The notes beneath the pieces were generated by a model, which was not told the DNA's origin, searched no databases, and saw nothing but the letters and a program-made list of their open reading frames with translations. From an uncultured Dehalococcoidales bacterium (GTDB taxonomy: Bacteria; Chloroflexota; Dehalococcoidia; Dehalococcoidales; UBA2162): a stretch of DNA of 64,000 bases. Within the stretch, counting starts at the first letter, position 1. Each line of letters opens with the position of its first letter. The DNA is taken from NCBI GenBank assembly GCA_964453525.1, contig CAYVOV010000009.1, forward strand, positions 64,686 through 128,685. The letters run 5' to 3'. A program made the translations under genes and the position numbers. This document shows positions 2,439 through 59,452 of the stretch, one piece after another.

Positions 2439-3116
2439 ATGAAATGGAGTAAATCGCTCGACATATTTGCTATATTTATGCTTTATGTCATTGTCATTAC
2501 TATTGGCATCATTATGATAGTTTACTTAGTAGTGACTCCGAATCTTGAAACAAATGATAAAGTTGGAATTACAATGGCGATAAGCACGGTGGCACTTGTC
2601 GTTGTTACAGGTGTCTATGCTTGGCACACGCATAAAATGGCTGAGGAGATGAGAGAGCAAAGGATAATAACATCACGTCCAGTAATCATTTTAAAACCTG
2701 TACATGAAAAAGATATTTGGGAGGGAAGTACTAAGGATTATTTTTCACATTTTGAAATTTCTAATGTAGGAAATAGCCCTGCAATCGAGTTGGAAAGTTC
2801 ACTTACGGCCAATAAACATGATTACTCCAGTAGTATCCGACAAACATATTTGAGGAAAGATGATGATCCCGTTAAATTTCGCCCTTATAATATTTCGAGT
2901 CTGGAACAAAATAAAACATACTACCTTATTTGCGAATATCAAAACGTATTTCCTTATGATGTTCAAAAACCGTTCTATCAAACGTGTTTACCTTTTAAAA
3001 TGAGGGAATCCGGCGAAAAAGGAAAAATATACATTGTAGCTGGCGAATTAGAATTTACAGAAGTATCAGAAGAAGAACGTATTGATGCGTTCGGAAGTAG
3101 GAGTAAACCAAAATGA
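2439..3116 (+). CDS. hypothetical membrane protein (2 N-terminal TM helices; paralogue of 22700..23428)
   Basis: GGAGG lies 7 nt upstream of the ATG. There are two hydrophobic helices, then EQRIITSRPVIIL and FEISNVGNSPA motifs that are shared with ORF 22700. The gene is AT-rich (~33% G+C by hand count of one 60-nt line) inside the trp operon. Confidence 0.7.
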   Translation: MKWSKSLDIFAIFMLYVIVITIGIIMIVYLVVTPNLETNDKVGITMAISTVALVVVTGVYAWHTHKMAEEMREQRIITSRPVIILKPVHEKDIWEGSTKDYFSHFEISNVGNSPAIELESSLTANKHDYSSSIRQTYLRKDDDPVKFRPYNISSLEQNKTYYLICEYQNVFPYDVQKPFYQTCLPFKMRESGEKGKIYIVAGELEFTEVSEEERIDAFGSRSKPK

Positions 3117-3205
3117 TTAAAGAAGCAATTCAGACCATTATTGGTAACAGGCCGGCTACCAGCTGCTCCGTTCGCCCTTCGACAGGCTCAGGGCGAATGA
3201 TGTAA
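3113..3205 (+). other. duplicated remnant of the trpD RBS/start (30-codon ORF running into a repeat)
   Basis: atgattaaagaagcaatt (3113-3130) matches the real trpD start atgattagagaagcaatt (3819-3836) at 17/18 nt. MIKEAIQTII compares with MIREAISMLV. The ATG overlaps the stop of ORF 2439..3116 (ATGA). Confidence 0.75.
3168..3199 (+). repeat. 'Rep-2' hairpin (gttcgYcc-ttcgacaRgctca-ggRcgaac family)
   Basis: ccgttcgcccttcgacaggctcagggcgaatg lies 12 nt upstream of the GIY-YIG start. The same unit recurs at 3484, 3553 and 3749. Confidence 0.85.
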
Positions 3206-3210
3206 AGCAA

Positions 3211-3543
3211 ATGAGTTTTTGGGTTTATATTTTACTATGTGCAGATAACTCCTACTACACCGGACATACTGACAATCTTGAGGAGCGCATCGCTAAACAT
3301 CAGACCGGTGAAATTACCGGCTATACATCCAGCAGACGTCCGGTTAAATTACTTTTTACACAGGAGTTCTCCACCAGGGAGGAAGCTCTGGCCCGTGAGC
3401 GGCAGGTTAAAGGATGGCGTCGTAGCAAGAAGGAGGCAATGATACGGGGAGATTGGGATGAGGTGTCTCGCCTGGCTCATGAGGGTTCGTCCTTCGACAA
3501 GCTCAGGACGAACGGGTATCGACCAAAGATGAGTGAATGGTAA
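3211..3543 (+). CDS. GIY-YIG nuclease family protein (URI-domain, COG2827-like)
   Basis: FWVYILLCADNSYYTGHTDNLEERIAKHQTG...REEALARERQVKGWRRSKKEAMI is the canonical small GIY-YIG pattern. The last ~20 codons (SSFDKLRTNG...MSEW) are read from repeat sequence. Confidence 0.85.
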   Translation: MSFWVYILLCADNSYYTGHTDNLEERIAKHQTGEITGYTSSRRPVKLLFTQEFSTREEALARERQVKGWRRSKKEAMIRGDWDEVSRLAHEGSSFDKLRTNGYRPKMSEW

Positions 3544-3790
3544 ACCATGGGGGCCCGCCCTTCGACAAGCTCAGGGCGAACGGAAAACGGGCTCATCAAG
3601 AATGGAAAAGAGGCTCAGCATGAACGCATTTAAATCAAAGAAGAGTGAATAATAATCTCAGGACGAACGCATCTGAATCGAAGAGGAGTGAATGATAATC
3701 TCAGGACGAACGCATTTAAACCAGAGAGGAGTGAATAATAAACTTGTGGGCGTTCATCCTTCGACAAGCTCAGGACGAACGGATAATAAA
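3484..3790 (+). repeat. cluster of Rep-2 hairpins plus ~44-bp tandem units
   Basis: Hairpins at 3484-3515, 3553-3583 and 3749-3782. Tandem units ctcaggRcgaacgcatYtRaaYcRaagaRgagtgaatRataa at ~3502, 3613, 3657 and 3700. Confidence 0.85.
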
Positions 3791-3818
3791 GTATTAAATT
3801 AATGAACGGAGAAGAAAA

Positions 3819-4835
3819 ATGATTAGAGAAGCAATTTCAATGCTGGTTGAAGGGAAGTCACTATCCACAGATCAGGCAGCACAGGTGATGAATGAAATTA
3901 TGGAGGGTGAAGTGACCCCCGCACAGTTCGGCGCCTTTGTCACCGCTCTCCGGCTCAAGGGAGAGACGGTAGAGGAAATCGCCGGGCTGGTGAAAGTGAT
4001 GCGTGCCAAGGCTATCCCGGTACTCATCAAAGAGCCGGTGATTGACGTGGTCGGTACCGGAGGTGACGGCAAGAATACCTTCAATATCTCCACGGCTGCC
4101 GCCTTTGTTGTTGCCGGCGCCGGACTGAAGGTAGCCAAGCATGGCAACCGTGCTGCCTCGAGCCAGAGTGGCGCCGCCGACGTGCTGGAAGCGCTGGGAG
4201 TTAAATTCGACCTCAATGCCGAGCAGGTGCAGAAGTCGGTTGAGGAGGTAGGAATCGGTTTTATGTTCGCCCCGGCGTTTCACCCGGCGATGAAGTATGC
4301 CGGACCTCCCCGGCGGGAGATAGGTATCCGCACCGTGTTTAATATCATCGGGCCCCTGACCAATCCGGCCGGCGCCAGAACATACCTTCTGGGAGTCGCC
4401 GAGACTTCACTGGTTGAGAAACTGGCGCTGGTGCTGCAGAGCCTTGACTGCGAACACGCTCTGGTAGTCCACGGCGAGGACGGACTTGATGAAATCACGC
4501 TAACGGGGAAAAGCCAGGTCTGCGAGCTTAAAGACGGCAAAATTCATACCTATACAATCGACCCCGGAGACTTTGGTCTGGTAAAAGCCAGCCTGGATGC
4601 CCTGAAAGGCGGCACTGCCGAGGAAAACGCCACTCTGTTACGGGATATTCTCAGTGGGAAGAAAGGACCCCAGCGGGATATTGTTATTCTGAACGCCGCG
4701 GCAGCACTTGTGGCAGGAAATAAGGCTGAATCGGTTGAAGAGGGGATAAAGATGGCAATGGATGCGGTTGATAAAGGGCAGGCACTAGACAAGCTGAAAT
4801 GGCTTGTCGAATTCAGCCAGAGTTTTGCGGTATAA
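3819..4835 (+). CDS. trpD: anthranilate phosphoribosyltransferase
   Basis: VVGTGGDGKNTFNISTAAAFV and KHGNRAASSQSGAADVLEALG motifs. Sits in operon position after trpG. Confidence 0.95.
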   Translation: MIREAISMLVEGKSLSTDQAAQVMNEIMEGEVTPAQFGAFVTALRLKGETVEEIAGLVKVMRAKAIPVLIKEPVIDVVGTGGDGKNTFNISTAAAFVVAGAGLKVAKHGNRAASSQSGAADVLEALGVKFDLNAEQVQKSVEEVGIGFMFAPAFHPAMKYAGPPRREIGIRTVFNIIGPLTNPAGARTYLLGVAETSLVEKLALVLQSLDCEHALVVHGEDGLDEITLTGKSQVCELKDGKIHTYTIDPGDFGLVKASLDALKGGTAEENATLLRDILSGKKGPQRDIVILNAAAALVAGNKAESVEEGIKMAMDAVDKGQALDKLKWLVEFSQSFAV

Positions 4836-4871: not shown

Positions 4872-4988
4872 GTCATTCTGAGTGAAACGAAGAATCTCGG
4901 GGTGGGGAAGATAATATACTTAAAACCCCACCATGCCGAGACCCTTCGCGGAGTTTGCACTGAGCAGAGCGAATGTGCTCTGGGTGAC
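4872..4988. repeat. inverted pair of 'gtcattc...gaatgac/gggtgac' family hairpin units between trpD and trpC
   Basis: gtcattctgagtgaaacgaagaatctcggggtgggga (4872-4908) and ccccaccatgccgagacccttcgcgg...ctctgggtgac (4926-4988). Confidence 0.75.
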
Positions 4989-5789: not shown

Positions 5790-6430
5790 CGAAGGTAAAA
5801 ATATGCGGGCTGTCCGAGGTCGAGCACGCGCTGGCTGCCGCCGAAGCGGGCGCCGATTTCCTGGGAGTGATGTTCGCTCCCAGCCGCCGCCAGGTTACGC
5901 CGGAGAGGGCGGCGGAGATAGCCGGGGCGGTCCATAGCCTGGAAAACCCGCCGGAGGTGGTCGGTGTTTTCGTTGACCTGCCGGCTAAGGAGGTCAACGA
6001 AATCGCAGCTAAGTGCGGACTTGACCGGGTGCAGCTCAGCGATGGTGAGGACTGGTCATACTGCCTTGAAATTGAGAGACCGGTTACAAAAGTAGTCCAT
6101 ATAGTGGAAGGAAAGAAAGCTTCAGAAGTTATTGCAGAGATAGAAGAGGGTTATAAAGTGGTCTCAAAGAAGGACGTTATCTGTCAGCTGGATACACAGG
6201 TTGGAGATGTATACGGCGGGACGGGACAGACTTTTAACTGGGAGCTGGCAGGGGAAGCAGCCAGTAAATTCCAGATTATGGTTGCCGGAGGACTGACCCC
6301 TGAAAACGTCGGTCGGCTCATCACCGAGGTCAATCCCTGGGGAGTGGATGTCTCCTCGGGCGTTGAAACAGATGGCAAAAAGGATATTAAGAAGATTATA
6401 GAGTTTATCAATAGAGCGAAGGGGGGTTAA
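5786..6430 (+). CDS. trpF: phosphoribosylanthranilate isomerase
   Basis: VKICGL...GADFLGVMF...GVDVSSGVE. 4-nt overlap with trpC. Confidence 0.92.
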   Translation: MTKVKICGLSEVEHALAAAEAGADFLGVMFAPSRRQVTPERAAEIAGAVHSLENPPEVVGVFVDLPAKEVNEIAAKCGLDRVQLSDGEDWSYCLEIERPVTKVVHIVEGKKASEVIAEIEEGYKVVSKKDVICQLDTQVGDVYGGTGQTFNWELAGEAASKFQIMVAGGLTPENVGRLITEVNPWGVDVSSGVETDGKKDIKKIIEFINRAKGG

Positions 6431-7618
6431 TTGATACAGGGTAAAAGAGGATATTTCGGGAACTACGGGGGACAATTCGTCCCGGAGACACTGATGCCGG
6501 TGCTCGACGAGCTGGCGGAAGCTTACAGGCAGGCGAATGCCGATGCCGCTTTCTGGGCTGAGTTCGATGCGCTGTCCCGCGACTATTCCGGCAGGCCGAC
6601 TCCGCTTTATCTGGCGGAAACGCTGACCAGGCATTGCGGCAGCGTAAAAATCTACCTGAAACGGGAAGACCTGGCTCACACCGGAGCCCATAAGATTAAC
6701 AATGCCCTGGGTCAGGGCTTGATGGCTCAGAAAATGTGCAAACGGAGGATTATTGCCGAGACGGGGGCAGGCCAGCATGGAGTGGCTGTGGCGGCAGTTT
6801 GCGCCAAGCTGGGTCTGGATTGCATCGTTTATATGGGAGAGGAAGATGTCAGGCGGCAGTCGCTTAACGTTTTCCGGATGAAACTGATGGGTGCCGAGGT
6901 AAGACCGGTTGCCGGGGGCAGCCGGACACTCAAGGATGCCATCAATGAGGCGATAAGGGACTGGGTGACGAACGCCAGGGATACGTATTACCTTCTCGGT
7001 TCGGTCGTCGGTCCTTACCCGTATCCAATGATGGTGCGCGACTTTCAGTCGGTAATCGGCAAGGAGACAAGGCAGCAGATACTGGACAGGGAAGGACGCC
7101 TGCCTGACTACATAGTTGCCTGTGTCGGCGGCGGCAGCAATGCCATCGGCATTTTCTATCCTTTTATTGATGATAAGGAAGTGAAGCTAATCGGCGTGGA
7201 GGCTGCCGGAAGGGGAATTGAAAGCGGGGAACATGCCGCTTCGCTGGCGGAGGGAAGAGTGGGAGTCCTCCACGGGGCAAAGTCATACGTTCTCCAGGAC
7301 AGTGACGGACAAATCAGGGAGACGCACAGTGTCTCCGCCGGACTCGATTATCCCGGGGTGGGACCCGAGCACAGCTACCTGAAAGACACCGGACGAGCAA
7401 CCTATGTTGCCGTGGATGACAAAGAAGCCCTCGAAGGTTTCCAGCTTCTTTGCCGGACGGAAGGTATTCCACCGGCCCTTGAATCGGCTCACGCCATAGC
7501 CTATACCGCCGCTATGGCGCCGTCTCTCGATAAAGAACAGATTATCGTCATCAACCTTTCCGGAAGGGGAGATAAAGATATGGGTATTGTCGCCGATGAA
7601 CTGGGGGTGAAGCTGTGA
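6431..7618 (+). CDS. trpB: tryptophan synthase beta chain
   Basis: [22 protein letters not shown] (PLP lysine) and GGGSNAIG motifs. TTG start immediately after the trpF stop. Confidence 0.96.
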
Positions 7619-11255: not shown

Positions 11256-12053
11256 TTGAAAGAATTGGAAAAAGTAATCGTTGTCAAGATTGGCGGAGCG
11301 ACACTCGGCAGTCATGATACCGCTATCGAAGACATAGTCGAGCTTCAGAAGCAGGGTAAGCCGGTGCTGGTCGTACATGGCGGTGGTAAGCTTATAACCG
11401 AGTGGCTAAAAAAGCAGGGTGTAGAGACAAGCTTCGTCAGAGGCGAGCGGGTAACTGACGGACCGACCCTTGAGGTTGCAACGGCGGTGCTTGCCGGACT
11501 GGTGAATAAGGATATCGTTAGTGCTATTAATGCTCTGGGTGGCAAGGCAGTCGGTATAAGCGGCGTTGACGGGGCTGTTATCCAGGGTAAGATTGCCGAA
11601 AAGGAGAAGGGCTATGTTGGCACCGTGACCAAGGTAGATACGAGCCTGCTGGAGGCTCTACTTGAGGCGGGCTTTACTCCGGTGGTCTCCCCGATTGGGC
11701 TTAATTCCGGTGACAGACCGGCTGATGAACCGCCGACGCTCAACTATAATGCCGATGTCATCGCCGGTGAAATAGCTGCTGCCATAAATGCTGAAAGGCT
11801 GGTCTTTCTGACAGATGTGGAGGGCGTCAGTGATGAATCAGGTAAACTTATTTCTTTAATGACTCCTGAAGAAGCCAATGCTTTGCTAGATTCGGGTGTT
11901 GCCTCTGGTGGAATGATTCCCAAGATTAAAGCCTGCCTTACAGCTTCATCAGTTACCCCATCGACGTGTATTATAGATGGTAGAAAATCCCACGCCCTCT
12001 TGAGCGAGATAGGGGGAAAAAGTAAGGGAACGGTTATACAACAGGGGAGTTAA
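11256..12053 (+). CDS. argB: acetylglutamate kinase
   Basis: VVKIGGA, VLVVHGGG and NYNADVIAGEIA motifs. TTG start. Confidence 0.92.
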   Translation: MKELEKVIVVKIGGATLGSHDTAIEDIVELQKQGKPVLVVHGGGKLITEWLKKQGVETSFVRGERVTDGPTLEVATAVLAGLVNKDIVSAINALGGKAVGISGVDGAVIQGKIAEKEKGYVGTVTKVDTSLLEALLEAGFTPVVSPIGLNSGDRPADEPPTLNYNADVIAGEIAAAINAERLVFLTDVEGVSDESGKLISLMTPEEANALLDSGVASGGMIPKIKACLTASSVTPSTCIIDGRKSHALLSEIGGKSKGTVIQQGS

Positions 12054-12061
12054 AGGGGGGT

Positions 12062-12208
12062 GAAGCCCCTAATCCAAGACTGATATCCCCCTTTAGAAAA
12101 GGGGGATTAAGGGGGATTTTATAAATCCCTATCGGTCTCCCCTTCGACAGGCTCAGGGTAAGCTCTTTACGAAAGGGAGAGGTTAAAAAAAGAAATTCTA
12201 AGGAATGA
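12062..12208 (+). repeat. Rep-1 composite repeat (copy 2)
   Basis: gaagcccctaatccaagactgatatccccctttagaaaagggggattaagggggattttataaatccctatcggtctccccttcgacaggctcagggtaagctctttacgaaagggagaggttaaaaa. Confidence 0.9.
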
Positions 12209-16344: not shown

Positions 16345-16505
16345 GTGAAGAGGGACAAAGCCCCTTCTCCAAGACCAATATCCCCCTTTTTAAAAGGGGG
16401 ATTAAGGGAGATTTAATCATAAATCCCTCTCAATCTCCCCTTCGACAGGCTCAGGGCAAGCTCTTTACGAAAGGGAGAGGTTAAAAAGGAATTTTGGAGA
16501 ATGAC
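16345..16505 (+). repeat. Rep-1 composite repeat (copy 3)
   Basis: gaagagggacaaagccccttctccaagaccaatatccccctttttaaaagggggattaagggagatttaatcataaatccctctcaatctccccttcgacaggctcagggcaagctctttacgaaagggagaggttaaaaaggaatttt. Confidence 0.9.
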
Positions 16506-20236: not shown

Positions 20237-22696
20237 ATGTCGCTGAATACTGAGCCTCTGCGCAAAATCATCGAGCTTGAGTGCAATAAAGGCTATGCGG
20301 ATTCGACGGTAATTGGTGGTCTGGATAAATTTCTCCATAACTGGGCCGGTCAGGCCGCAGAGTCTATTACCTCCCCAAAGCTCCTACGCCGTTTTAACAG
20401 ACTTCATCTTGATAAATCAGACTACTCCTCGCTATCCAGGGAGCAGCGTAAAGAGTGGATAGACAACCTACTCAAATTCCTTGCCGAAGTCGAGGATAGT
20501 GAAAAAGAAACAGTTGAAGTCAGTCAACCCCCAGAAGTCAGTAAACTACCACCGAAACTGAGACCAAAACGGGTGACATCTACCATATCAATCGATTCAC
20601 CGATTACCGTTGTCAAAGGTATCAGTTCAGCGATGGCAACACGGTTCGGTAAACTCGGCGTCAGAACCGTCCGTGATTTACTTTATTTCTTCCCTCACCG
20701 CCACCTCGACTACAGCCGGAGGAAATATATCTCACAGCTTACCGAGGGCACTGAAGAGACTATCGTGGCTAACGTCTGGCAGGCACAGGAGACGAGGCTC
20801 GGCGGAAGGCGGAGGAGTACCGAGGCTATCGTCGGCGATGAAACCGGTAATGTCAGGGTGGTATGGTTTAACAATCCGTATGTAGCAAAAGCATTGACCA
20901 CGAATAAGAGGGTTGTTATCAGCGGCAGGGTCGGCTTGTTCAGGGGACAGCATGTTTTTCAGTCTCCTGAGTGGGAGCTTGTCGAAGACAAAGAACTGAT
21001 TCATGTCGGTCGCCTGGTTCCTCTCTATTCCCTCACCCAGGGGTTACGCCCCCGCCAGGTAAGGAAGCTAATGAAGAATGTCATTGACACGTGGGCATGG
21101 CAGGTCGAGGAGTTTCTTCCGCTGGAGTTGAGGGAAAGACAGAAGCTGCTTGAGTTGCCCCAGGCAATCAGCCAGGCGCACTTCCCCGATGATGACGGTA
21201 TGAAAACACGGGCAAGGGTACGCCTAGCTTTTGATGAGCTTTTTCTCCTTCAACTGGGCGTGCTGAGCAAGAAGCGCGACTGGCAGGAAAGCCAGCCGGG
21301 CAGTGCCATAGCCATCGAGAAAGAGGTACTGGACACTTTTTTGAAATCTCTGCCCTTTGAGCTTACCGGAGCCCAGCAAAGAGCACTTGATGAGCTACTT
21401 ACCGACCTCGAGAGACGGCAGGCGATGTCCCGTTTACTCCAGGGTGACGTTGGCAGTGGCAAGACGGTGGTAGCCACCGCCGCATTGCTTATGGCGGCAG
21501 CCAATGGCTGCCAGGGAGCACTGATGGCACCGACTGAAATTCTTGCCACCCAGCATTTTTCTACAATCTGCCAGCTTCTTTCGGGAACAGCAGACCCGGA
21601 AGATGAAGATGACTATCTAAAAAGCTATTCAGGCCTTTTATCCCGCCCCCTTACCGTGGCTCTGCTGATAGGCGCCATTACCCAGACCAAGAAGCGCGAG
21701 ATTCAGCAGCGAGTACAGGACGGGAGCATAGATATCGTCATTGGCACTCACGCCCTTATTCAGAAGGAGGTGGAGTTCCATAAGCTGGGGCTGGTGGTGA
21801 TAGATGAACAGCACCGCTTCGGCGTTGAGCAGCGCTCCGCCCTGCGTCAGAAAGGCTATAACCCTCACCTTTCGGTAATGACGGCAACGCCGATTCCCCG
21901 GACACTTGCCCTGACCCTTTACGGCGACCTCGACCTCTCGGTGATTGACGAGCTTCCCCCGGGAAGGCTGGCGGTGAAGACGAAATGGCTCAAGCCGTCA
22001 CAGAGGAAAAGCGCCTATGACTTCATAAAAAAACAGGTGAGTGAGGGAAGGCAGGCATTCATTATCTGCCCGTTAATCGAGGAATCGGAGGCCGTGCAGG
22101 CGAGGGCGGCTGTCGCCGAGTACGAGCGCCTGGCAAATGAAGTCTTTCCCGAACTGAAGCTGGGGCTGCTCCACGGACGTATATCATCGGCGGAAAAGGA
22201 AGAGGTGATGCAGCGCTTCTACTCCGGCGAGCTTCATATCCTGGTGGCAACGCCGGTGGTTGAGGTGGGCATCGATGTACCGAATGCCACGGTAATGCTT
22301 GTCGAGAGCGCCGACAGATTCGGCCTGTCTCAACTGCACCAGTTCCGGGGCAGGGTGGGCAGAGGGCAGGAACAGAGCTACTGCATGCTGCTGGCGGAGA
22401 ACCCTTCGCAGGTGGCGAGGCAGCGCCTGGATATAATAGAAAGCACGCAGGACGGCTTCAAGCTTGCCGAGGAGGATTTAAAGCTGCGCGGACCCGGGGA
22501 ATTCTTCGGCACCCGCCAGAGCGGCCTGCCCGACCTCCGGATGGCGAAAATCTCCGATGTCCATCTACTTGAAATAGCCCGCAACGAAGCAATGAAACTC
22601 TTCGAAAAAGATAAAAACCTCAAAAACCCCGAACACACACTCCTCGTCAAAGAACTCGCCCGCGTCTGGACAGAACAGGCCGGTGAGTGGAGTTAG
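20237..22696 (+). CDS. recG: ATP-dependent DNA helicase RecG
   Basis: LTGAQQRAL, GDVGSGKT (Walker A), VIDEQHRFGV (DEQH), TATPIPRTL, LHQFRGRVGRG. Confidence 0.96.
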   Translation: MSLNTEPLRKIIELECNKGYADSTVIGGLDKFLHNWAGQAAESITSPKLLRRFNRLHLDKSDYSSLSREQRKEWIDNLLKFLAEVEDSEKETVEVSQPPEVSKLPPKLRPKRVTSTISIDSPITVVKGISSAMATRFGKLGVRTVRDLLYFFPHRHLDYSRRKYISQLTEGTEETIVANVWQAQETRLGGRRRSTEAIVGDETGNVRVVWFNNPYVAKALTTNKRVVISGRVGLFRGQHVFQSPEWELVEDKELIHVGRLVPLYSLTQGLRPRQVRKLMKNVIDTWAWQVEEFLPLELRERQKLLELPQAISQAHFPDDDGMKTRARVRLAFDELFLLQLGVLSKKRDWQESQPGSAIAIEKEVLDTFLKSLPFELTGAQQRALDELLTDLERRQAMSRLLQGDVGSGKTVVATAALLMAAANGCQGALMAPTEILATQHFSTICQLLSGTADPEDEDDYLKSYSGLLSRPLTVALLIGAITQTKKREIQQRVQDGSIDIVIGTHALIQKEVEFHKLGLVVIDEQHRFGVEQRSALRQKGYNPHLSVMTATPIPRTLALTLYGDLDLSVIDELPPGRLAVKTKWLKPSQRKSAYDFIKKQVSEGRQAFIICPLIEESEAVQARAAVAEYERLANEVFPELKLGLLHGRISSAEKEEVMQRFYSGELHILVATPVVEVGIDVPNATVMLVESADRFGLSQLHQFRGRVGRGQEQSYCMLLAENPSQVARQRLDIIESTQDGFKLAEEDLKLRGPGEFFGTRQSGLPDLRMAKISDVHLLEIARNEAMKLFEKDKNLKNPEHTLLVKELARVWTEQAGEWS

Positions 22697-22699
22697 GGT

Positions 22700-23428
22700 G
22701 TGAAAATGATTAATAATACTATCAAGATTGGATTGAAAGTAATAATTGTTCTGTGTTTACTAACGCTTCCAATCGTATTTATATCGCTGTGGAATGTACC
22801 TTTGGCTCAAAGTATATTCCCGTTCCTAGAAATTTCAACAGAATTCCCCTCAAAAATAATCGCTGGTTACACTGCGGTATTAGCTTGGGCTACAATATTA
22901 CTCGGATATTTTGCTTTTTCCACGATACAAAATAATAAAGAGCAAAGGTTAGACAGTTTTCGTCCTTTACTTGTACCAGCTGGTGGCTCACTTGGTATTG
23001 GATATATAAAACACTCAGAATCAGGATATGAGAGTCTCTCAGGTGAAAACATGCTTCATGTGCACAATATCGGTGTGGGACCTGCCGAAAATATAGCCAT
23101 ACGACTGGAACTACGGTCTGATAAAGGAGCACATAATGTTCAATTGGATGAGATGTTAACTTTCGTTGAGCCGCTTGCATCAGGTCATAAGGGAATAGTT
23201 CGTCAATGGAAGACCATTGAACAGGAGGTTGAAATCTACGATGACCATTGGCTAGTTATTAGCTATGATGACTTGTTCCACCGTCATTTTGAGACGGAGG
23301 CTCGATACATAAAGGAAAGTTGTAGTTGGGTAAGTATGAGAACCATACAAGTAAGAAAACTTCGTCCGCGCGGAAGGGATATAGATTACTACTCAGGTCT
23401 TTCTGGCGATAGCGAAGAACAGAATTAA
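22700..23428 (+). CDS. hypothetical membrane protein (2 N-terminal TM helices; paralogue of 2439..3116)
   Basis: Starts 3 nt after the recG stop. Two hydrophobic helices are followed by EQRLDSFRPLLV and LHVHNIGVGPA motifs, matching ORF 2439. AT-rich relative to its flanks. Confidence 0.7.
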   Translation: MKMINNTIKIGLKVIIVLCLLTLPIVFISLWNVPLAQSIFPFLEISTEFPSKIIAGYTAVLAWATILLGYFAFSTIQNNKEQRLDSFRPLLVPAGGSLGIGYIKHSESGYESLSGENMLHVHNIGVGPAENIAIRLELRSDKGAHNVQLDEMLTFVEPLASGHKGIVRQWKTIEQEVEIYDDHWLVISYDDLFHRHFETEARYIKESCSWVSMRTIQVRKLRPRGRDIDYYSGLSGDSEEQN

Positions 23429-23486
23429 GTTATGATTAGGTAGCAGTACAGGTTTTTCCCTGTTAAGGATAAGCCAAGGAGTATCT

Positions 23487-23507
23487 AAGAGGGGCTTCGC
23501 CCCTCTT
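23487..23507 (+). terminator. GC-rich UUCG-loop hairpin ('Rep-3' core), terminator-like
   Basis: aagaggggc-ttcg-cccctctt followed by cctagtttcttcc, 59 nt after the stop of ORF 22700. Confidence 0.4.
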
Positions 23508-23517
23508 CCTAGTTTCT

Positions 23518-23688
23518 TCCCCCTCTCCTTTGATAAAGGAGAGGGGGATACAGGGGGTGAGGTTTCATTAATTTTATTGCCTGCTCCACCCTGAGATTCT
23601 TCGCCCACCAGAGGTGGGCTCCAGAATGACACCATGTGATTTGTCATGCTGGAGGGAGCGCAGCGACCGAAGCATCTCAGGGAGGGGG
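23518..23688. repeat. Rep-3 second hairpin plus an inverted pair of 'ccaccctgagattcttcg...ccagaatgac' units
   Basis: cccctctcctttgataaaggagagggg; unit 23584-23630; inverted variant gtcatgctggagggagcgcagcgaccgaagcatctcagggaggg at 23643-23686. Confidence 0.85.
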
Positions 23689-23723
23689 TTAGAGAACAGC
23701 GGTCACGTGGTATAATCACTTTC

Positions 23724-24032
23724 GTGAAACAATATTATGTTTACATTATGTCTAATAAATCCGGCACTTTGTATACCGGGATAACTAATGATTTGGAGCA
23801 GCGTGTCTGCCAACACAAGAGCCAGCAAATCGAAGGTTTTACTAAAAAATACAGAGTTACCCACCTTCTATATTTTGAGTCCACTGATGACGTTACTACG
23901 GCAATTATGAGAGAAAAACAAATAAAAGGAATGCTAAGAAGTAAGAAAATCGAACTGATAAAAACAATCAATCCGCAGTTGAAAGATTTAAGTGGGGACT
24001 GGTTGGATAAGAATGGCACCTCCCCACCCTAA
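23724..24032 (+). CDS. GIY-YIG nuclease family protein (URI-domain, COG2827-like)
   Basis: KQYYVYIMSNKSGTLYTGITNDLEQRVCQHK...REKQIKGMLRSKKIELI. GTG 23724 is chosen so that the first beta-strand (YYVYI) is included; the start is uncertain (track ORF starts at 23646, ATG at 23748). TGgTATAAT lies at 23708-23716. The stop codon lies inside the downstream repeat. Confidence 0.8.
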   Translation: MKQYYVYIMSNKSGTLYTGITNDLEQRVCQHKSQQIEGFTKKYRVTHLLYFESTDDVTTAIMREKQIKGMLRSKKIELIKTINPQLKDLSGDWLDKNGTSPP

Positions 24033-24205
24033 GATTCTTCGCCCACCAGAGGTGAGCTCCAGAATGACAGTTGAGTTTGCGATTACCGCATCACCCGCCG
24101 AAGGCGGACTCCTCACAACGACAAAGGAAGTGCTCCTTGCAATGACAGAAGAAACACTTCTGTGCAATGACAGAGGAAATGCTACATACCATGACACATT
24201 GATTA
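24021..24205 (+). repeat. direct copy of the 45-nt unit plus a run of short '...gcaatgac' hairpin units
   Basis: tccccaccctaagattcttcgcccaccagaggtgagctccagaatgac (24021-24068) differs from 23584-23630 at about 2-3 positions. It is followed by cccgccgaaggcgg, aaggaagtgctccttgcaatgac and agaagaaacacttctgtgcaatgac. Confidence 0.85.
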
Positions 24206-24451
24206 CCCCCTCCGGTCAGCTTTGTGTTATAATTTTTGGGTTGACACCTCAGATAACTCAGACCGGAGGATACTGACACGGAAATACTTGAAATACGGAA
24301 TAGATTAGCCGGGCTTTTAAACGGGGCGGCGGCTGAAGCCCAGAAGGCAGGCTCGCTGCCCTCGGTAGCTTTACCGGAGGTAACCATTGAGCGTCCCCAG
24401 AATCCGGAGCACGGAGACTATGCCTCAAGCTTTGCTCTAAGACTGGCGAGA

Positions 24452-25948
24452 GTGGCCGGAAAGAAGCCAATGGATATTGCCGATGACCTGATAAGCCTGA
24501 TTGCTCCCGGTCCGGAGATTGAGAGTATTGTTACCGCTGAGCCGGGATTCATTAATTTCACTCTGAGCGGCGAATGGCTTGCCAGCCAGGTTGAAACAAT
24601 CCTGAAAACCGCTGATAGCTACGGTAATATCGACCTCGGTAAAGGCAGCCGGGTGCAGGTAGAGTTCGTCAGCATCAATCCAACCGGACCTCTGCACGTC
24701 GGGCACGGACGTGGCGCCGTTCTCGGCAGCACACTGGCAGATGTGCTGGCTGCGGCCGGGTATAACGTGGAGAAGGAGTATTACTTTAACGATGCCGGCA
24801 ACCAGATGGACGCCTTTTACCGCTCACTGTACGCCCGTTATGTGCAGGCTATGGGCAAAGATGTGGAAATGCCTGATGATGGCTACCACGGCAATTACAT
24901 GGTCGATATGGCAAAAGAGCTTGTAACCACTGAAGGAGACCGCTTTCTCAAGCTTGGCGAGGCTGAGGCTATTGTCGAACTTGGCAAACTGGGGCTGGAG
25001 AAGGTTATTAGCGGAATTAAGGATGAGCTCCACCTTCTCGGAGTTACCTTCGATAGCTGGTTTACCGAGCGCAGCCTGTACGAGAACGGCCAGTATGACC
25101 GGGTTATGGAGTTGTTGCGTCAGGGAGGTTTTATCGCCGATAAGGAAGGTGCCACCTGGTTTGTTTCAACTGCCCTCGGTGAGGATAAAGATAATGTGGT
25201 GGTGAGGGGGGACGGCTCACCCACTTACTTTGCCACCGATATCGCCTATCATTATAACAAGTTTATCGAGCGTAAATTCGACCGGATAATTGACATCTGG
25301 GGCGCTGACCACCAGGGTCATGTTCCCCGTCTCAAGGCAGCCGTTGGCGCTCTCGGCATTGACCCCGAACAACTTGAGATTATTATTCACCAGATGGTAA
25401 CCCTGCGGCGCGGCGGCGAGATAGTCCGAATTTCCAAGCGCAGCGGAGATATGATTACCCTGAGTGAGCTTATAGAAGAGGTAGGAAAAGATGCCTGCCG
25501 TTTCTTCTTTTTAGCCCGCTCGGCTAACAGCCAGATGGACTTCGACCTCGAGCTGGCTAAAAAAGAATCGCAGGACAATCCCGTCTACTATGTCCAGTAC
25601 GCTCACGCCCGTATCGCCAGTATCCTCCGCCTGGCTGAAGAGAGAGGGATTGATTACAGTGACGGGGACGTTTCACTGATAAAGACCGAGCCGGAGCTAA
25701 CCCTGATACGCAAGCTGTTACTCCTACCGGAACTCATCGAGCTTGCAGCCCGGAATCTGGAGCCTCACCACCTCACCTATTACGCTCAGGACCTGGCTAC
25801 AGTATTCCACAGCTTCTACAAGCAGTGCCGGGTGGTATCGGATGATGCTGCCCTTACCAAAGCTCGATTGAAGCTTGTCGAGGCAGCAAAGATAGTCCTG
25901 GCAAGAACCCTTCACCTGATGGGAATGACTGCTCCGGAGAGGATGTAG
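24452..25948 (+). CDS. argS: arginine--tRNA ligase (conserved N-terminus continues upstream to ~24260 without a canonical start)
   Basis: [15 protein letters not shown] (HIGH) and the C-terminal anticodon-binding region. The in-frame upstream translation [14 protein letters not shown]...[20 protein letters not shown] is typical ArgRS N-terminus. The GTG at 24452 is only the first canonical start codon. Confidence 0.9.
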
Positions 25949-36134: not shown

Positions 36135-36370
36135 TAAGAGGGGCTCCGCCCCCTCTTCTATGGCTATTTCTTCCTTCCCCTTGAGAAGGGGCCTTGCCTC
36201 AAAAGTCATTCTGGAGTCCGCCTCTGGCGGACGAAGAATCTCAGGGTGGGGAGTCAAGGTAATCCCCTCCTCCCTGAGACCCTTCGCTACGCTCCAGGGT
36301 GACAGGAACACACGACTTTTAGGGCAAGACTTTGGGAAGGGGAAGGGGGATACAGGGGGATAGGGTTCTA
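36135..36370. repeat. nested repeats: Rep-3 hairpins interrupted by 'gtcattctggag...agaatctcagggtgg' units
   Basis: taagaggggctccgccccctctt (36135-36157); gtcattctggagtccgcctctggcggacgaagaatctcagggtgggga (36205-36252); ccctgagacccttcgctacgctccagggtgac; ggggaagggggatacagggggatagggtt. Confidence 0.8.
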
Positions 36371-48842: not shown

Positions 48843-49039
48843 GTCATTCTGCCCTTTGTCAAGTATGTAGTAAACTACAGCGGGAACCCGGAATTTCTAC
48901 ACTGTCATTCCCGCACCGTAAAAAGCACGGGGTAAACTCCAAGCGGGAATCAAGTACTACCACGCCGTCATTCCAGCGGAAGCTGGAATCCAGCGGGGGA
49001 AAACGGGGTCTGGATTCTCGGGTCAAGCCCGAGAATGAC
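48843..49039. repeat. array of 'gtcattcc...ggaatc / attctc...gagaatgac' hairpin units
   Basis: gtcattcccgcaccgtaaaaagcacggggtaaactccaagcgggaatc; gtcattccagcggaagctggaatc; tggattctcgggtcaagcccgagaatgac. Confidence 0.85.
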
Positions 49040-49074
49040 ATCAAGCAGCAATCTCGAAAGGGGGATAATGAATC

Positions 49075-58639: not shown

Positions 58640-59452
58640 TCATCCCGGCATTTCTGCCGAAATGTCCCGGAGCCTTTTCATCGCTTCCTCGGTTCCTATT
58701 TTGCCTTGCTTTAATTCTTCGTTCGTAATCTCCACTATTTCAAGAAATTTCTCAAGGTTTTTATACTGGTCTTGGGTAATGGGTAATGAGAGCAATGGCT
58801 CAACAACTTCACGGTAAAGCTCAAGTTCGATTCTTTCAGAAGTGTCTAAATCCGCACCCTGAGTTTTTTCCAAGGTTGCTAAATCAGCCTCCAGAGTTTT
58901 TTTAGCTTCTTCTATACTTTGCCTTATCTTTTCCCCGGTTTCTTCAGCCTCGGCAGCTTTCCTTGTTTCTTCGGCTTCGGCAGCTTTCCTGGCTTTCTCG
59001 GCTTCGGCAGCTTTCCTGGCTTCTTCGGCCTCACGTCTGGCTCTCTCTTTAGCTTCCTTTTCAGCCTGTTTCTTTGCCTGCTTTTCAGCTTCGGCAGCTT
59101 TCCTGGCTTCTTCAGCTTCTTCGGCTCCAACAGCGTCAGTTGCTTCTTCAGCCTTACCAGTTTCCTCGGCCTGGGCGGTTGACCCTGCTTCATCTGACGC
59201 CTCTTTGGTCTTTTCCCAGGCTGCTATATCAGCCGCCAGAGCTTTCTTAGCCTCTTCTATCTCCCTGGCGGCTTTTTCAATGGCATCAATCCTGGCCTGC
59301 CTTTCGGCTTCAGCAGCCTTCTTGCTTTCAGCAGCCTTCCTGCTTTCAACAACCCTCCGGCGTCCCCGTAAGCCACGCCCCCGCAACGGGTAATTACACC
59401 ACTGGCAGTTATCACCGCTGGTTATCTGTCCGCAATTAGGACATCTCGGCAT
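58640..59452 (-). CDS. zinc-ribbon protein with long Ala/Glu/Lys-rich repeat region
   Basis: MPRCPNCGQITSGDNCQWCNYPL is followed by reiterated EEARKAAEAE(K/E) units. The matching nucleotide tandem repeats lie at ~58960-59120. Confidence 0.65.
   Translation of the reverse strand: MPRCPNCGQITSGDNCQWCNYPLRGRGLRGRRRVVESRKAAESKKAAEAERQARIDAIEKAAREIEEAKKALAADIAAWEKTKEASDEAGSTAQAEETGKAEEATDAVGAEEAEEARKAAEAEKQAKKQAEKEAKERARREAEEARKAAEAEKARKAAEAEETRKAAEAEETGEKIRQSIEEAKKTLEADLATLEKTQGADLDTSERIELELYREVVEPLLSLPITQDQYKNLEKFLEIVEITNEELKQGKIGTEEAMKRLRDISAEMPG

Follow-up and report, generated by a model that had tools for sequence, protein, structure and literature searches.

Two gene pairs in a stretch of Dehalococcoidales DNA

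Analysis of a 64 kb stretch of DNA from an uncultured Dehalococcoidales bacterium (the window; positions count from its first letter) revealed two modules in which the gene of a small transmembrane (TM) protein is followed by that of a small GIY-YIG nuclease. As the first-pass annotation of this DNA had reported, the genes TM1 and GIY1 lie between trpG and trpD of the tryptophan operon (module 1), and the same gene order returns with TM2 and GIY2 at 22700-24032 (module 2). GIY1 starts 94 nt past the TM1 stop, and module 2 occupies the slot between recG and argS. The annotation proposed that such a pair may be a functional unit, foreign to the operon that carries it. On the evidence presented here, we consider it probable that the TM gene and the GIY cassette are two unrelated things that are merely adjacent, and not a working pair. 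The genes concerned are the following:

48-1463: trpE, in the 5' flank of module 1
1619-2212: trpG, in the 5' flank of module 1
2439-3116, plus strand: TM1, 225 aa, with two TM helices and a long juxtamembrane helix, then a beta-sandwich
3097-3116, plus strand: dual-coding end of TM1, where GTAGGAGTAAACCAAAATGA encodes the conserved ...SRSKPK* tail
3211-3543, plus strand: GIY1, 110 aa, a single-domain GIY-YIG nuclease of the UPF0213/Slx1-like type
3819-4835, plus strand: functional trpD, its first ~16 codons being the right-hand copy of a duplication
20237-22696: recG, the gene 5' of module 2
22700-23428, plus strand: TM2, a distant TM1 paralogue that starts 3 nt past the recG stop
23724-24032, plus strand: GIY2, a single-domain GIY-YIG nuclease with a likely start at GTG 23724

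The 3' flank of module 1 continues after trpD with trpC, trpF, and trpB, and argS is the gene 3' of GIY2. The ATG listed for GIY2, at 23646, falls within repeats, which makes the GTG at 23724 the likelier start. The whole window contains just two GIY-YIG open reading frames (ORFs) and just two ORFs of the TM family.

The distribution of these genes elsewhere carries the main result. A word-indexed search yielded 142 TM1-family matches, all of them unannotated, and the TM2 family gave 33 matches. By means of a family profile, 97 TM1 loci (477 kb in total) were gathered, 80 of them from metagenomes and 17 from GTDB genomes, the latter all Dehalococcoidia or Chloroflexota. Among the 97 loci, a GIY-YIG ORF is found only in L011 and L090. 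When the 47-55 TM1 loci with at least 500-800 bp past the TM gene are taken as the denominator, a GIY gene follows in two of them, while none of six TM2-type contexts has a GIY-YIG neighbour; GIY1 homologues, for their part, occur without a TM gene. The check for GIY-YIG enrichment among the neighbours of TM homologues hence revealed essentially none, the residual signal coming from two insertion sites only, and the proposal of a functional unit is not upheld.

The TM genes and their slots

TM1 belongs to the trp operon of Dehalococcoidia as a resident accessory gene specific to this lineage. The order trpG-TM-trpD is present in 60 of the 97 loci, and in 24 further loci one of trpG and trpD adjoins the TM gene, the other being absent or unobservable; at least one trp neighbour is present at 84 of the 97 loci, and neither neighbour at eight. 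This is difficult to reconcile with the initial description of TM1 as a gene foreign to, and inserted in, the operon. In 71 of 73 comparable loci the TM gene is directly followed by trpD, without a GIY gene, and in 47 of the 73 loci that have trpD downstream the TM stop overlaps the trpD start in an ATGA. Both figures agree with a caveat entered in the first-pass annotation, namely that the GIY cassette came after the 2-TM gene already abutted trpD. TM1 is AT-rich (G+C 35.3%, and 28.8% at third codon positions, vs 50-55% for the trp genes), which could suggest that it came recently. However, the G+C content of the TM gene is below that of its trp neighbours in all 81 loci measured (mean 41% vs 54%); a low G+C content thus belongs to the gene as such and does not signal a recent arrival.

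The 47 loci with the ATGA overlap share the consensus TAGTAGGAGTAAACCAAAATGA ahead of it, with a conserved AGGAG within the coding end of the TM gene. In the window, the bases that encode the end of TM1 also carry the Shine-Dalgarno sequence (AGGAG) and the ATG of the ancestral trpD start. The C-terminal ...SRSKPK is near-invariant because the same codons hold the Shine-Dalgarno sequence and the start codon of trpD. We infer that TM1 is translationally coupled to trpD, by way of a ribosome-binding site and a start codon placed in its last codons. The remainder of the protein appears to change rapidly: pairwise identities of TM and TrpD are weakly correlated (Spearman 0.17), and where TrpD is 80-90% identical, TM identity spans 22% to 84%. 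From these comparisons, TM1 resembles a cassette that turns over fast or can be exchanged, in a slot that stays fixed.

In L014, a second small 2-TM ORF (113 aa; 6411-6750) is located between the TM1 homologue and trpD, and its stop likewise overlaps the trpD ATG. The slot ahead of trpD therefore accepts other small membrane-protein genes. A regulatory role of TM1 based on richness in Trp codons was considered and rejected, since three Trp in 225 residues are unremarkable. To our knowledge, no role in the trp pathway is known for the TM family.

BLASTP comparison of TM1 with TM2 gave E = 0.027 only. Profile-profile comparison aligned the two over 130 columns with 97.6% probability (E = 3e-12), so that the paralogy proposed for the TM genes holds, as a remote relation, and the hidden Markov model of the TM2 family matches TM1 at E = 5e-10. 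The aligned stretch comprises the last TM helix, the EQR..RP juxtamembrane motif, and the strands hNxGxGPA and YYLVxEY. An AlphaFold model of TM1 (mean pLDDT 76) has helices at 5-35 and 38-78, followed by the beta-sandwich, and the second TM helix runs on as a long helix. K/R residues precede helix 1, the loop is acidic, and K/R/E residues follow helix 2; this distribution of charges around the helices would place the beta-sandwich in the cytoplasm. In homologues with one or three TM helices, the orientation of the last helix is unchanged. Scans of TM1 and TM2 against Pfam, PADLOC, and NCBIfam produced sub-threshold matches only, from the composition of the TM segments, a PDB sequence search with the TM1-family profile gave no match, and scans of viral contigs with TM profiles found no relatives.

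An exhaustive profile search assigned 1,544 clusters to the TM1/TM2 superfamily (E <= 0.001). The TM-family beta-sandwich is also found fused, C-terminally and with no TM anchor, to complete tyrosine recombinases (Pfam Phage_integrase) in L005 (94-1353), L006 (8969-10420), P0351, P0369 (L115 5001-6419), P0391, and P0374. Two of these fusions, those of L005 and L006, are from Chloroflexota. Since the same domain is fused to tyrosine recombinases, the TM family might, with low confidence, be viewed as a factor derived from or directed at mobile elements. The fusion is the only functional hint, and it points to mobile-element biology rather than to tryptophan chemistry. The family is uncharacterised, and we find it modestly interesting: it keeps one place in the trp operon, its end is dual-coding, it turns over rapidly, and it is found fused to recombinases. 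As a separate observation, the neighbouring genes at one recombinase-fusion locus look archaeal.

Sequence comparison identifies TM2 as a distant TM1 paralogue in what appears to be a similarly variable slot, recG-argS. Apart from the position behind recG in the window, TM2-type genes were encountered between hisB and a HicB gene (L103), among the small ORFs of an island that also encodes a DUF3854 protein (L100-L102), and beside FHA/PP2C genes (L098). Locus L111, which is syntenic to module 2, retains ~77% nucleotide identity across recG and over the initial ~235 nt of its TM gene. The homology breaks inside the TM gene and resumes in argS (L111 1995-3360 vs window 22934-24336), and L111 has an unrelated TM C-terminal domain and hicBA at the place of the TM2 domain and GIY2.

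The GIY cassettes, their hairpins, and the insertion in trpD

GIY1 matches the Pfam GIY-YIG family at E = 2.5e-20, and GIY-YIG is the only above-cut-off Pfam match in GIY1 and GIY2 alike. The core of GIY1 measures ~90 aa (3211-3480) and GIY2 ~102 aa; the last ~20 codons of GIY1 come from a hairpin repeat, and the C-terminal tail differs between loci. The two proteins are 34% identical (E = 2e-18), and thus the GIY genes are paralogous too, as had been suggested. GIY1 matches 1zg2 (BH0048) over the whole domain at E = 8e-16 and 1ywl (EF2693) at E = 1.5e-12, and the matches of GIY2 to the same two structures are weak (E = 6e-6 and 2e-4, respectively). With the PADLOC defence models, weak matches only were obtained (E >= 0.015), the GIY proteins being far below significance.

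The GIY1 family is large, with 1,361 matches at E <= 1e-10. The best 120 of these are all at least 73% identical to GIY1, and Chloroflexi, Deltaproteobacteria, Nitrospirae, and Thermodesulfobacteriota are named as their sources. The closest relatives on long contigs (83-89% identical; L106-L109) lie between a TM1 homologue and trpD. Relatives at 76-81% identity occupy contexts without any nearby TM-family gene: they are flanked by a haemolysin-type gene on one side and a C39 (type I secretion) ABC transporter gene on the other, or by a cupin and an NMT1 gene, or they follow obg-proB. Where GIY1 homologues lie outside the trp operon, the start of the downstream gene is not duplicated.

Small nucleases of this kind have been described as the family Ssn (GIY-YIG_unchar_3, cd10448; SsnA in Neisseria meningitidis), which comprises single-domain GIY-YIG proteins of ~94 aa (Chenal et al., Nat Commun 2025, PMC11893778). 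Ssn proteins bind hairpin repeats (NTS, CGTCATTCCCGCGMAVGCGGGAATCYRG, generalised as the SRM) as single-stranded DNA and cut beside them; an SRM is nearby for 71% of ssn genes, and is present on both sides for 42% (PMC11893778). The authors likened the NTS-ssnA-NTS arrangement to an insertion sequence and to REP/RAYT, and reported that the NTS clusters beside variable membrane-protein genes in Neisseria, for which a role in cassette dynamics was proposed (PMC11893778). Both GIY genes of the window are likewise accompanied by repeats:

2233-2403: mosaic repeat block between trpG and TM1, with a 98-nt composite unit at 2233-2330
3113-3205, plus strand: trpD' remnant ORF, a copy of the first 16 trpD codons that enters the upstream hairpin
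3165-3203, plus strand: GIY1-type hairpin directly 5' of GIY1, GTTCGCCC-TTCGACAGGCTCA-GGGCGAA
3480-3586, plus strand: two GIY1-type hairpins (3480-3518 and 3548-3586) at and just past the GIY1 3' end
3608-3743, plus strand: tandem 43-nt repeats of half-hairpin units, with a further hairpin at 3747-3785
23487-23507, plus strand: terminator-like hairpin past TM2, part of a mosaic repeat common to L111
23586-23631: NTS-like repeat upstream of GIY2, with an inverted, diverged copy at 23641-23685
24024-24069: second 46-nt NTS-like repeat, a 96% identical copy that overlaps the GIY2 stop

In the GIY1-type hairpin, a stem encloses the loop TTCGACAAGCTCA. The core of this element is matched 10 times in the window, vs 0.02 expected, and all ten GIY1-type loci have one hairpin just upstream of the GIY gene, usually in inverted orientation, and a second one at the ORF's 3' end. 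The density of these hairpins is 2.8 per kb at distances of up to 300 bp from a GIY gene, and elsewhere 0.06 per kb. The stem covaries, with changes on both sides in five of eight pairs; because only sequences with five or more paired positions had been admitted to the stem set, the percentage paired is inflated, but not the variety of pair types. Two such hairpins, with cores at 2287 and 2344, lie in the mosaic block at 2233-2403 together with a near-canonical NTS-like element in minus orientation (2375-2397). Rfam detected nothing real in either module.

The repeats of GIY2, read on the minus strand, are GTCATTCTGGAGCCCACCTCTGGTGGGCGAAGAATC, which has the NTS flanks GTCATTC...GAATC around a longer stem. 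NTS-like elements number seven in the window, and the strict SRM pattern (HGTCWY...RNCYNB) has its sole window match at 49010-49040, with none at the repeats flanking GIY1 or GIY2. GIY2 is preceded by a candidate extended -10 element, TGGTATAAT, at 23707-23715, 8 nt ahead of the GTG. With this element and the terminator-like hairpin past TM2, GIY2 looks like a separate transcription unit.

Further repeats were observed in and around these elements. The array at 3608-3743 contains three to four ~43-nt units, each made up of the right half of the hairpin and GAGGAGTGAATRATAA, and every unit therefore bears a Shine-Dalgarno-like motif. Additional NTS-like elements (GTCATTC-hairpin-GAATC) are found at 48967-48990 (+), 49013-49039 (-), 4872-4896, and 36205-36240, the first two of which are inverted to each other at a spacing of 23 nt, much like a REPIN-style doublet. 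Composite intergenic repeats of 70-100 nt occur at 2233-2330, 12087-12184, and 16385-16482, with related ones at 12053, 16348, 29159, 23528, and 36330; they are built from shorter palindromic modules in a BIME-like manner, and one unit holds a GIY1-type hairpin.

The duplicated trpD start that the first-pass annotation had recognised is indeed present: ATGATTAAAGAAGCAATT at 3113 overlaps the TM1 stop (ATGA), and ATGATTAGAGAAGCAATT at 3819 is the start of functional trpD. The stop of the trpD' remnant (TAA) lies 5 nt ahead of the GIY1 ATG. The complete layout, which can be read in the window, L090, L106, L107, and L108/L109, runs from the TM end with its ATGA through the 16-codon trpD copy (MIKEAIQT..GKSLT) and a hairpin to the GIY gene, and on through a hairpin over the GIY 3' end and a spacer with a new Shine-Dalgarno sequence (3808-3813 in the window) to the real trpD start. 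The junction falls after trpD codon 16 in at least seven loci (six distinct genomes), namely those just listed and L011. In L011 (186-497), a TM1 homologue is cut off past the juxtamembrane RP motif by the hairpin/GIY cassette and has lost its beta-sandwich. The last few bases of the codon-16 junction are kept there and the rest of the left trpD copy is lost; GIY and trpD are intact, and there is no trpG within 185 nt upstream. The right copy in L090 still has GTAAACCAAAATGA, so that, counted from the trpD start, the duplication covered about -15 to +48. TM1 and trpD overlap and have signals in common, and an insertion at their junction can therefore spare both genes only by duplicating it. 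Terminator prediction gave none on the plus strand between trpG and trpD, and GIY1 is therefore probably expressed from the operon.

Only a minority of genomes have the cassette in the trpD start. Where TrpD identity is 57-77%, that of the GIY proteins is 79-87%, the same-codon rate at identical residues is 43-60% for GIY vs 41-53% for trpD, and nucleotide identity is 74-79% in the cassette and 67-78% in its flanks. With synonymous and nucleotide divergence this similar, the GIY copies look about as old as the genomes, and GIY is under purifying selection. A recent transfer of the cassette between the window and L106 was considered and rejected, its 78% nucleotide identity being close to the 72-75% of trpE/trpG/trpD. 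When genomes are ordered by TrpD similarity, those with GIY are scattered among GIY-less ones, and the left and right trpD copies of one genome are often more alike than copies between genomes. In our view the scatter arose mostly because the cassette was lost precisely, through recombination of the direct copies on its flanks, and repeated site-specific gain of the cassette could have added to it.

Known systems and rival explanations

The following history would account for these observations. GIY1 and GIY2 would be self-contained nuclease-plus-hairpin cassettes of the published Ssn/NTS kind, in which, by analogy, the Ssn-like enzyme would recognise the bracketing hairpin repeats and cleave them as single-stranded DNA. 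The GIY1 cassette entered after trpD codon 16, and a duplication of ~60 bp regenerated the TM1 end together with a working trpD start. GIY1 is probably read through from the trp operon and has been kept under purifying selection, and its cassette was probably lost repeatedly via recombination between the duplicated copies. GIY2, behind the terminator-like hairpin, may be served by its own promoter.

Several features support the likeness to Ssn. GIY1 and GIY2 are small (<150 aa) single-domain GIY-YIG proteins, and both genes have hairpin-forming repeats on their 5' and 3' sides: for GIY1 these are at 3165, 3480, and 3548, and for GIY2 at 23586 and 24024, with an inverted one at 23641. Repeats of both kinds are dispersed in the same genome (10 core matches and seven NTS-like elements in the 64 kb seen) and lie beside variable membrane-protein genes. 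Furthermore, the GIY2 repeats share the asymmetric GTCATTC...GAATC flanks of the NTS, and near-canonical NTS are present at 2375-2397 and 49010-49040. It seems probable from sequence that GIY2 is a member of the Ssn kind, while GIY1 would work like Ssn but possibly belong to a neighbouring clade. The host here is from Chloroflexota, a phylum without mention in PMC11893778.

Other systems resemble the cassettes in part. In the REP/REPIN-RAYT system (Bertels and Rainey, PMC3116915, PMC3337134), as here, a nuclease gene (single-copy in the sequence examined) lies between inverted, dispersed hairpin repeats, the repeats are assembled into mosaic BIME-like blocks, and the gene is long-lived and under purifying selection; however, the enzyme here is a GIY-YIG and not an HUH/Y1 IS200-IS605-type transposase, and the likeness is one of architecture only. 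The stand-alone UPF0213/Slx1-like proteins (1zg2 BH0048, 1ywl EF2693; Dunin-Horkawicz et al. 2006, PMC1564403) are, like GIY1, minimal GIY-YIG domains without an auxiliary domain. In contrast to GIY1, they are without a described repeat association or insertion behaviour, and GIY2 matches them weakly (E = 6e-6). The free-standing GIY-YIG homing endonucleases of T4-like phages (Seg, I-TevI relatives; PMC2988022) are likewise inserted between or into conserved genes, occur sporadically at one site among relatives, and are expressed from the host operon. Unlike these, GIY1 lacks a DNA-binding domain and is flanked by a target duplication and hairpin repeats, and its copies appear as old as the host genes. 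A search of the literature for GIY-YIG with REP, COG2827, YhbQ, or UPF0213 found nothing relevant.

Some of the data tell against mere adjacency and against cassettes of the Ssn kind. Both GIY-YIG genes of the window follow its only two TM-family genes, and all four GIY genes in ~650 kb of TM-selected sequence are directly downstream of a TM gene. The double adjacency has p ~ 0.01, a rough and post hoc value, and the trp cases share one junction, which leaves two independent sites. The promoter and terminator calls between TM2 and GIY2 are consensus matches only, and a Foldseek comparison of the TM1 model with PDB and BFVD returned generic Ig/FnIII/C2-like beta-sandwiches only, all at E > 0.01. 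As regards Ssn, the GIY1 hairpin, with its loop TTCGACAAGCTCA, is unlike the NTS/SRM in sequence, the UPF0213 structures are matched more closely by GIY1 than by GIY2, and the GIY2 repeats fall outside the strict SRM pattern, having a longer hairpin than it allows. To carry the activity of Ssn over to GIY1 is, moreover, an extrapolation by analogy. The most economical reading of the double adjacency remains that both TM genes sit at insertion-tolerant, recombination-prone slots, other occupants of which are hicBA in L111, HicB in L103, and the second small 2-TM ORF in L014.

This leads to the alternatives in which the two genes are connected. If the two genes formed a module for conflict, addiction, or mobility, in which a nuclease effector works with a membrane protein as sensor or anchor, this would explain why the order occurs twice in the window with homologous proteins and why at least seven loci (six distinct genomes) keep TM-GIY-trpD, GIY being under purifying selection. 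We find such a module scarcely credible: a GIY neighbour is absent at >95% of TM1 homologues and at all TM2 homologues examined, GIY1 homologues occur without a TM gene, L011 has its TM beta-sandwich deleted and its GIY intact, a terminator-like hairpin and a candidate promoter separate TM2 from GIY2, and no defence-system model of PADLOC was matched. Taken with the lack of conserved co-occurrence, the state of L011, the absence of a defence-model match, and the signals between TM2 and GIY2 make a protein-level TM-GIY partnership very unlikely. Hence, the homology of the two pairs and the caveat on their order of arrival are what endures of the first-pass interpretation, and the foreign origin and the functional unit are not.

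Two further explanations deserve consideration. Hairpin clusters and the nuclease embedded in them might gather by hypervariable membrane-protein cassettes, either modulating their exchange or merely being tolerated there, which would link the genes indirectly. The TM1 and TM2 slots are indeed both variable, with TM and TrpD identities decoupled in the former and, in the latter, the homology of recG-argS to L111 interrupted between the TM gene and argS, where hicBA replaces GIY2; hairpins lie on both sides of TM1 in the window, and in Neisseria the NTS clusters beside membrane-protein genes of raised diversity (PMC11893778). NTS-like elements are, in addition, ~11-fold enriched in TM1 flanks, in four independent loci only, but this may only mirror the fact that the trpG-TM spacer is one of few intergenic gaps. 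GIY1-type hairpins are not enriched near GIY-less TM1 genes (1 in 41 kb vs 0.043 per kb elsewhere), the majority of TM1 loci are without any repeats, and the independent GIY sites are two only, so that we hold this indirect link to be unlikely. It appears quite improbable that GIY1 is a free-standing homing endonuclease which has the conserved trpD 5' end as its target, passes from one Dehalococcoidia genome to another through cleavage and repair by recombination, and lies near TM1 because of its target site. The protein consists of a nuclease domain of ~90 aa alone, without a DNA-binding domain, homing itself makes no target duplication, and homologues elsewhere are without a duplicated start of the downstream gene. 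Homing would fit with a codon-16 insertion point that is the same where TrpD is only 57-77% identical, with the scatter of GIY-bearing genomes by TrpD similarity, and with left and right trpD copies that are often closest to each other within a genome, as it would with a GIY1 family at least 73% identical across four phyla (among the best 120 of 1,361 matches). However, precise loss via the flanking direct repeats explains the sporadic distribution equally, and the copies look genome-old, given a synonymous divergence of GIY that is about that of trpD and nucleotide identities of 74-79% in the cassette vs 67-78% in the flanks.

With adjacency of unrelated genes as the preferred reading, a "membrane sensor plus nuclease" should not be carried forward as a defence or addiction candidate. 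The GIY-YIG part is of a known kind with a likely new form, and the TM family is new and uncharacterised. Architecture of the Ssn type, a tiny GIY-YIG between its own hairpins, is present in Chloroflexota, and a second, UPF0213-like form of it, with a different hairpin, probably exists, to judge from GIY1. Module 1 is also a clear example of how a cassette settles in an essential operon: it duplicates an overlapping stop/start junction, and both neighbours keep working. Furthermore, the analysis exposes an unstudied family of AT-rich, hypervariable, membrane-tethered proteins that are apparently coupled to trpD across Dehalococcoidia and whose domain recurs on tyrosine recombinases.

Two ideas, possibly linked, go beyond this, and it is doubtful that they hold jointly. 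GIY1 may be part of a second partnership of nuclease and hairpin that is separate from cd10448 Ssn, UPF0213/Slx1-like and with its own covarying hairpin family; by duplicating the start of the invaded gene, it may have persisted for long within a biosynthetic operon. The TM1/TM2 superfamily, in turn, may mark exchangeable slots inside housekeeping operons; if so, the adjoining hairpin/nuclease cassettes would join in, or restrain, the exchange of cassettes.

Some minor observations concern the surroundings of the two modules. The trpE-trpG spacer contains, at 1568-1608, a 19-bp perfect palindrome with a 3-nt loop that is terminator-like on the minus strand only. At 58931-59200 lies a degenerate repeat of 9/27-nt periodicity with eight overlapping 48-nt copies, probably a repetitive coding segment. 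Finally, the ArgRS frame extends ~58 codons 5' of the listed GTG at 24452 (24273-24451; L111 3490-3572), with conserved N-terminal sequence, and this extension contains no ATG, GTG, or TTG. An in-frame ACG at 24278-24280 is located 9 nt past GGAGGA, L111 has an ACG at the aligned position, and this ACG may be a non-canonical start codon of argS.

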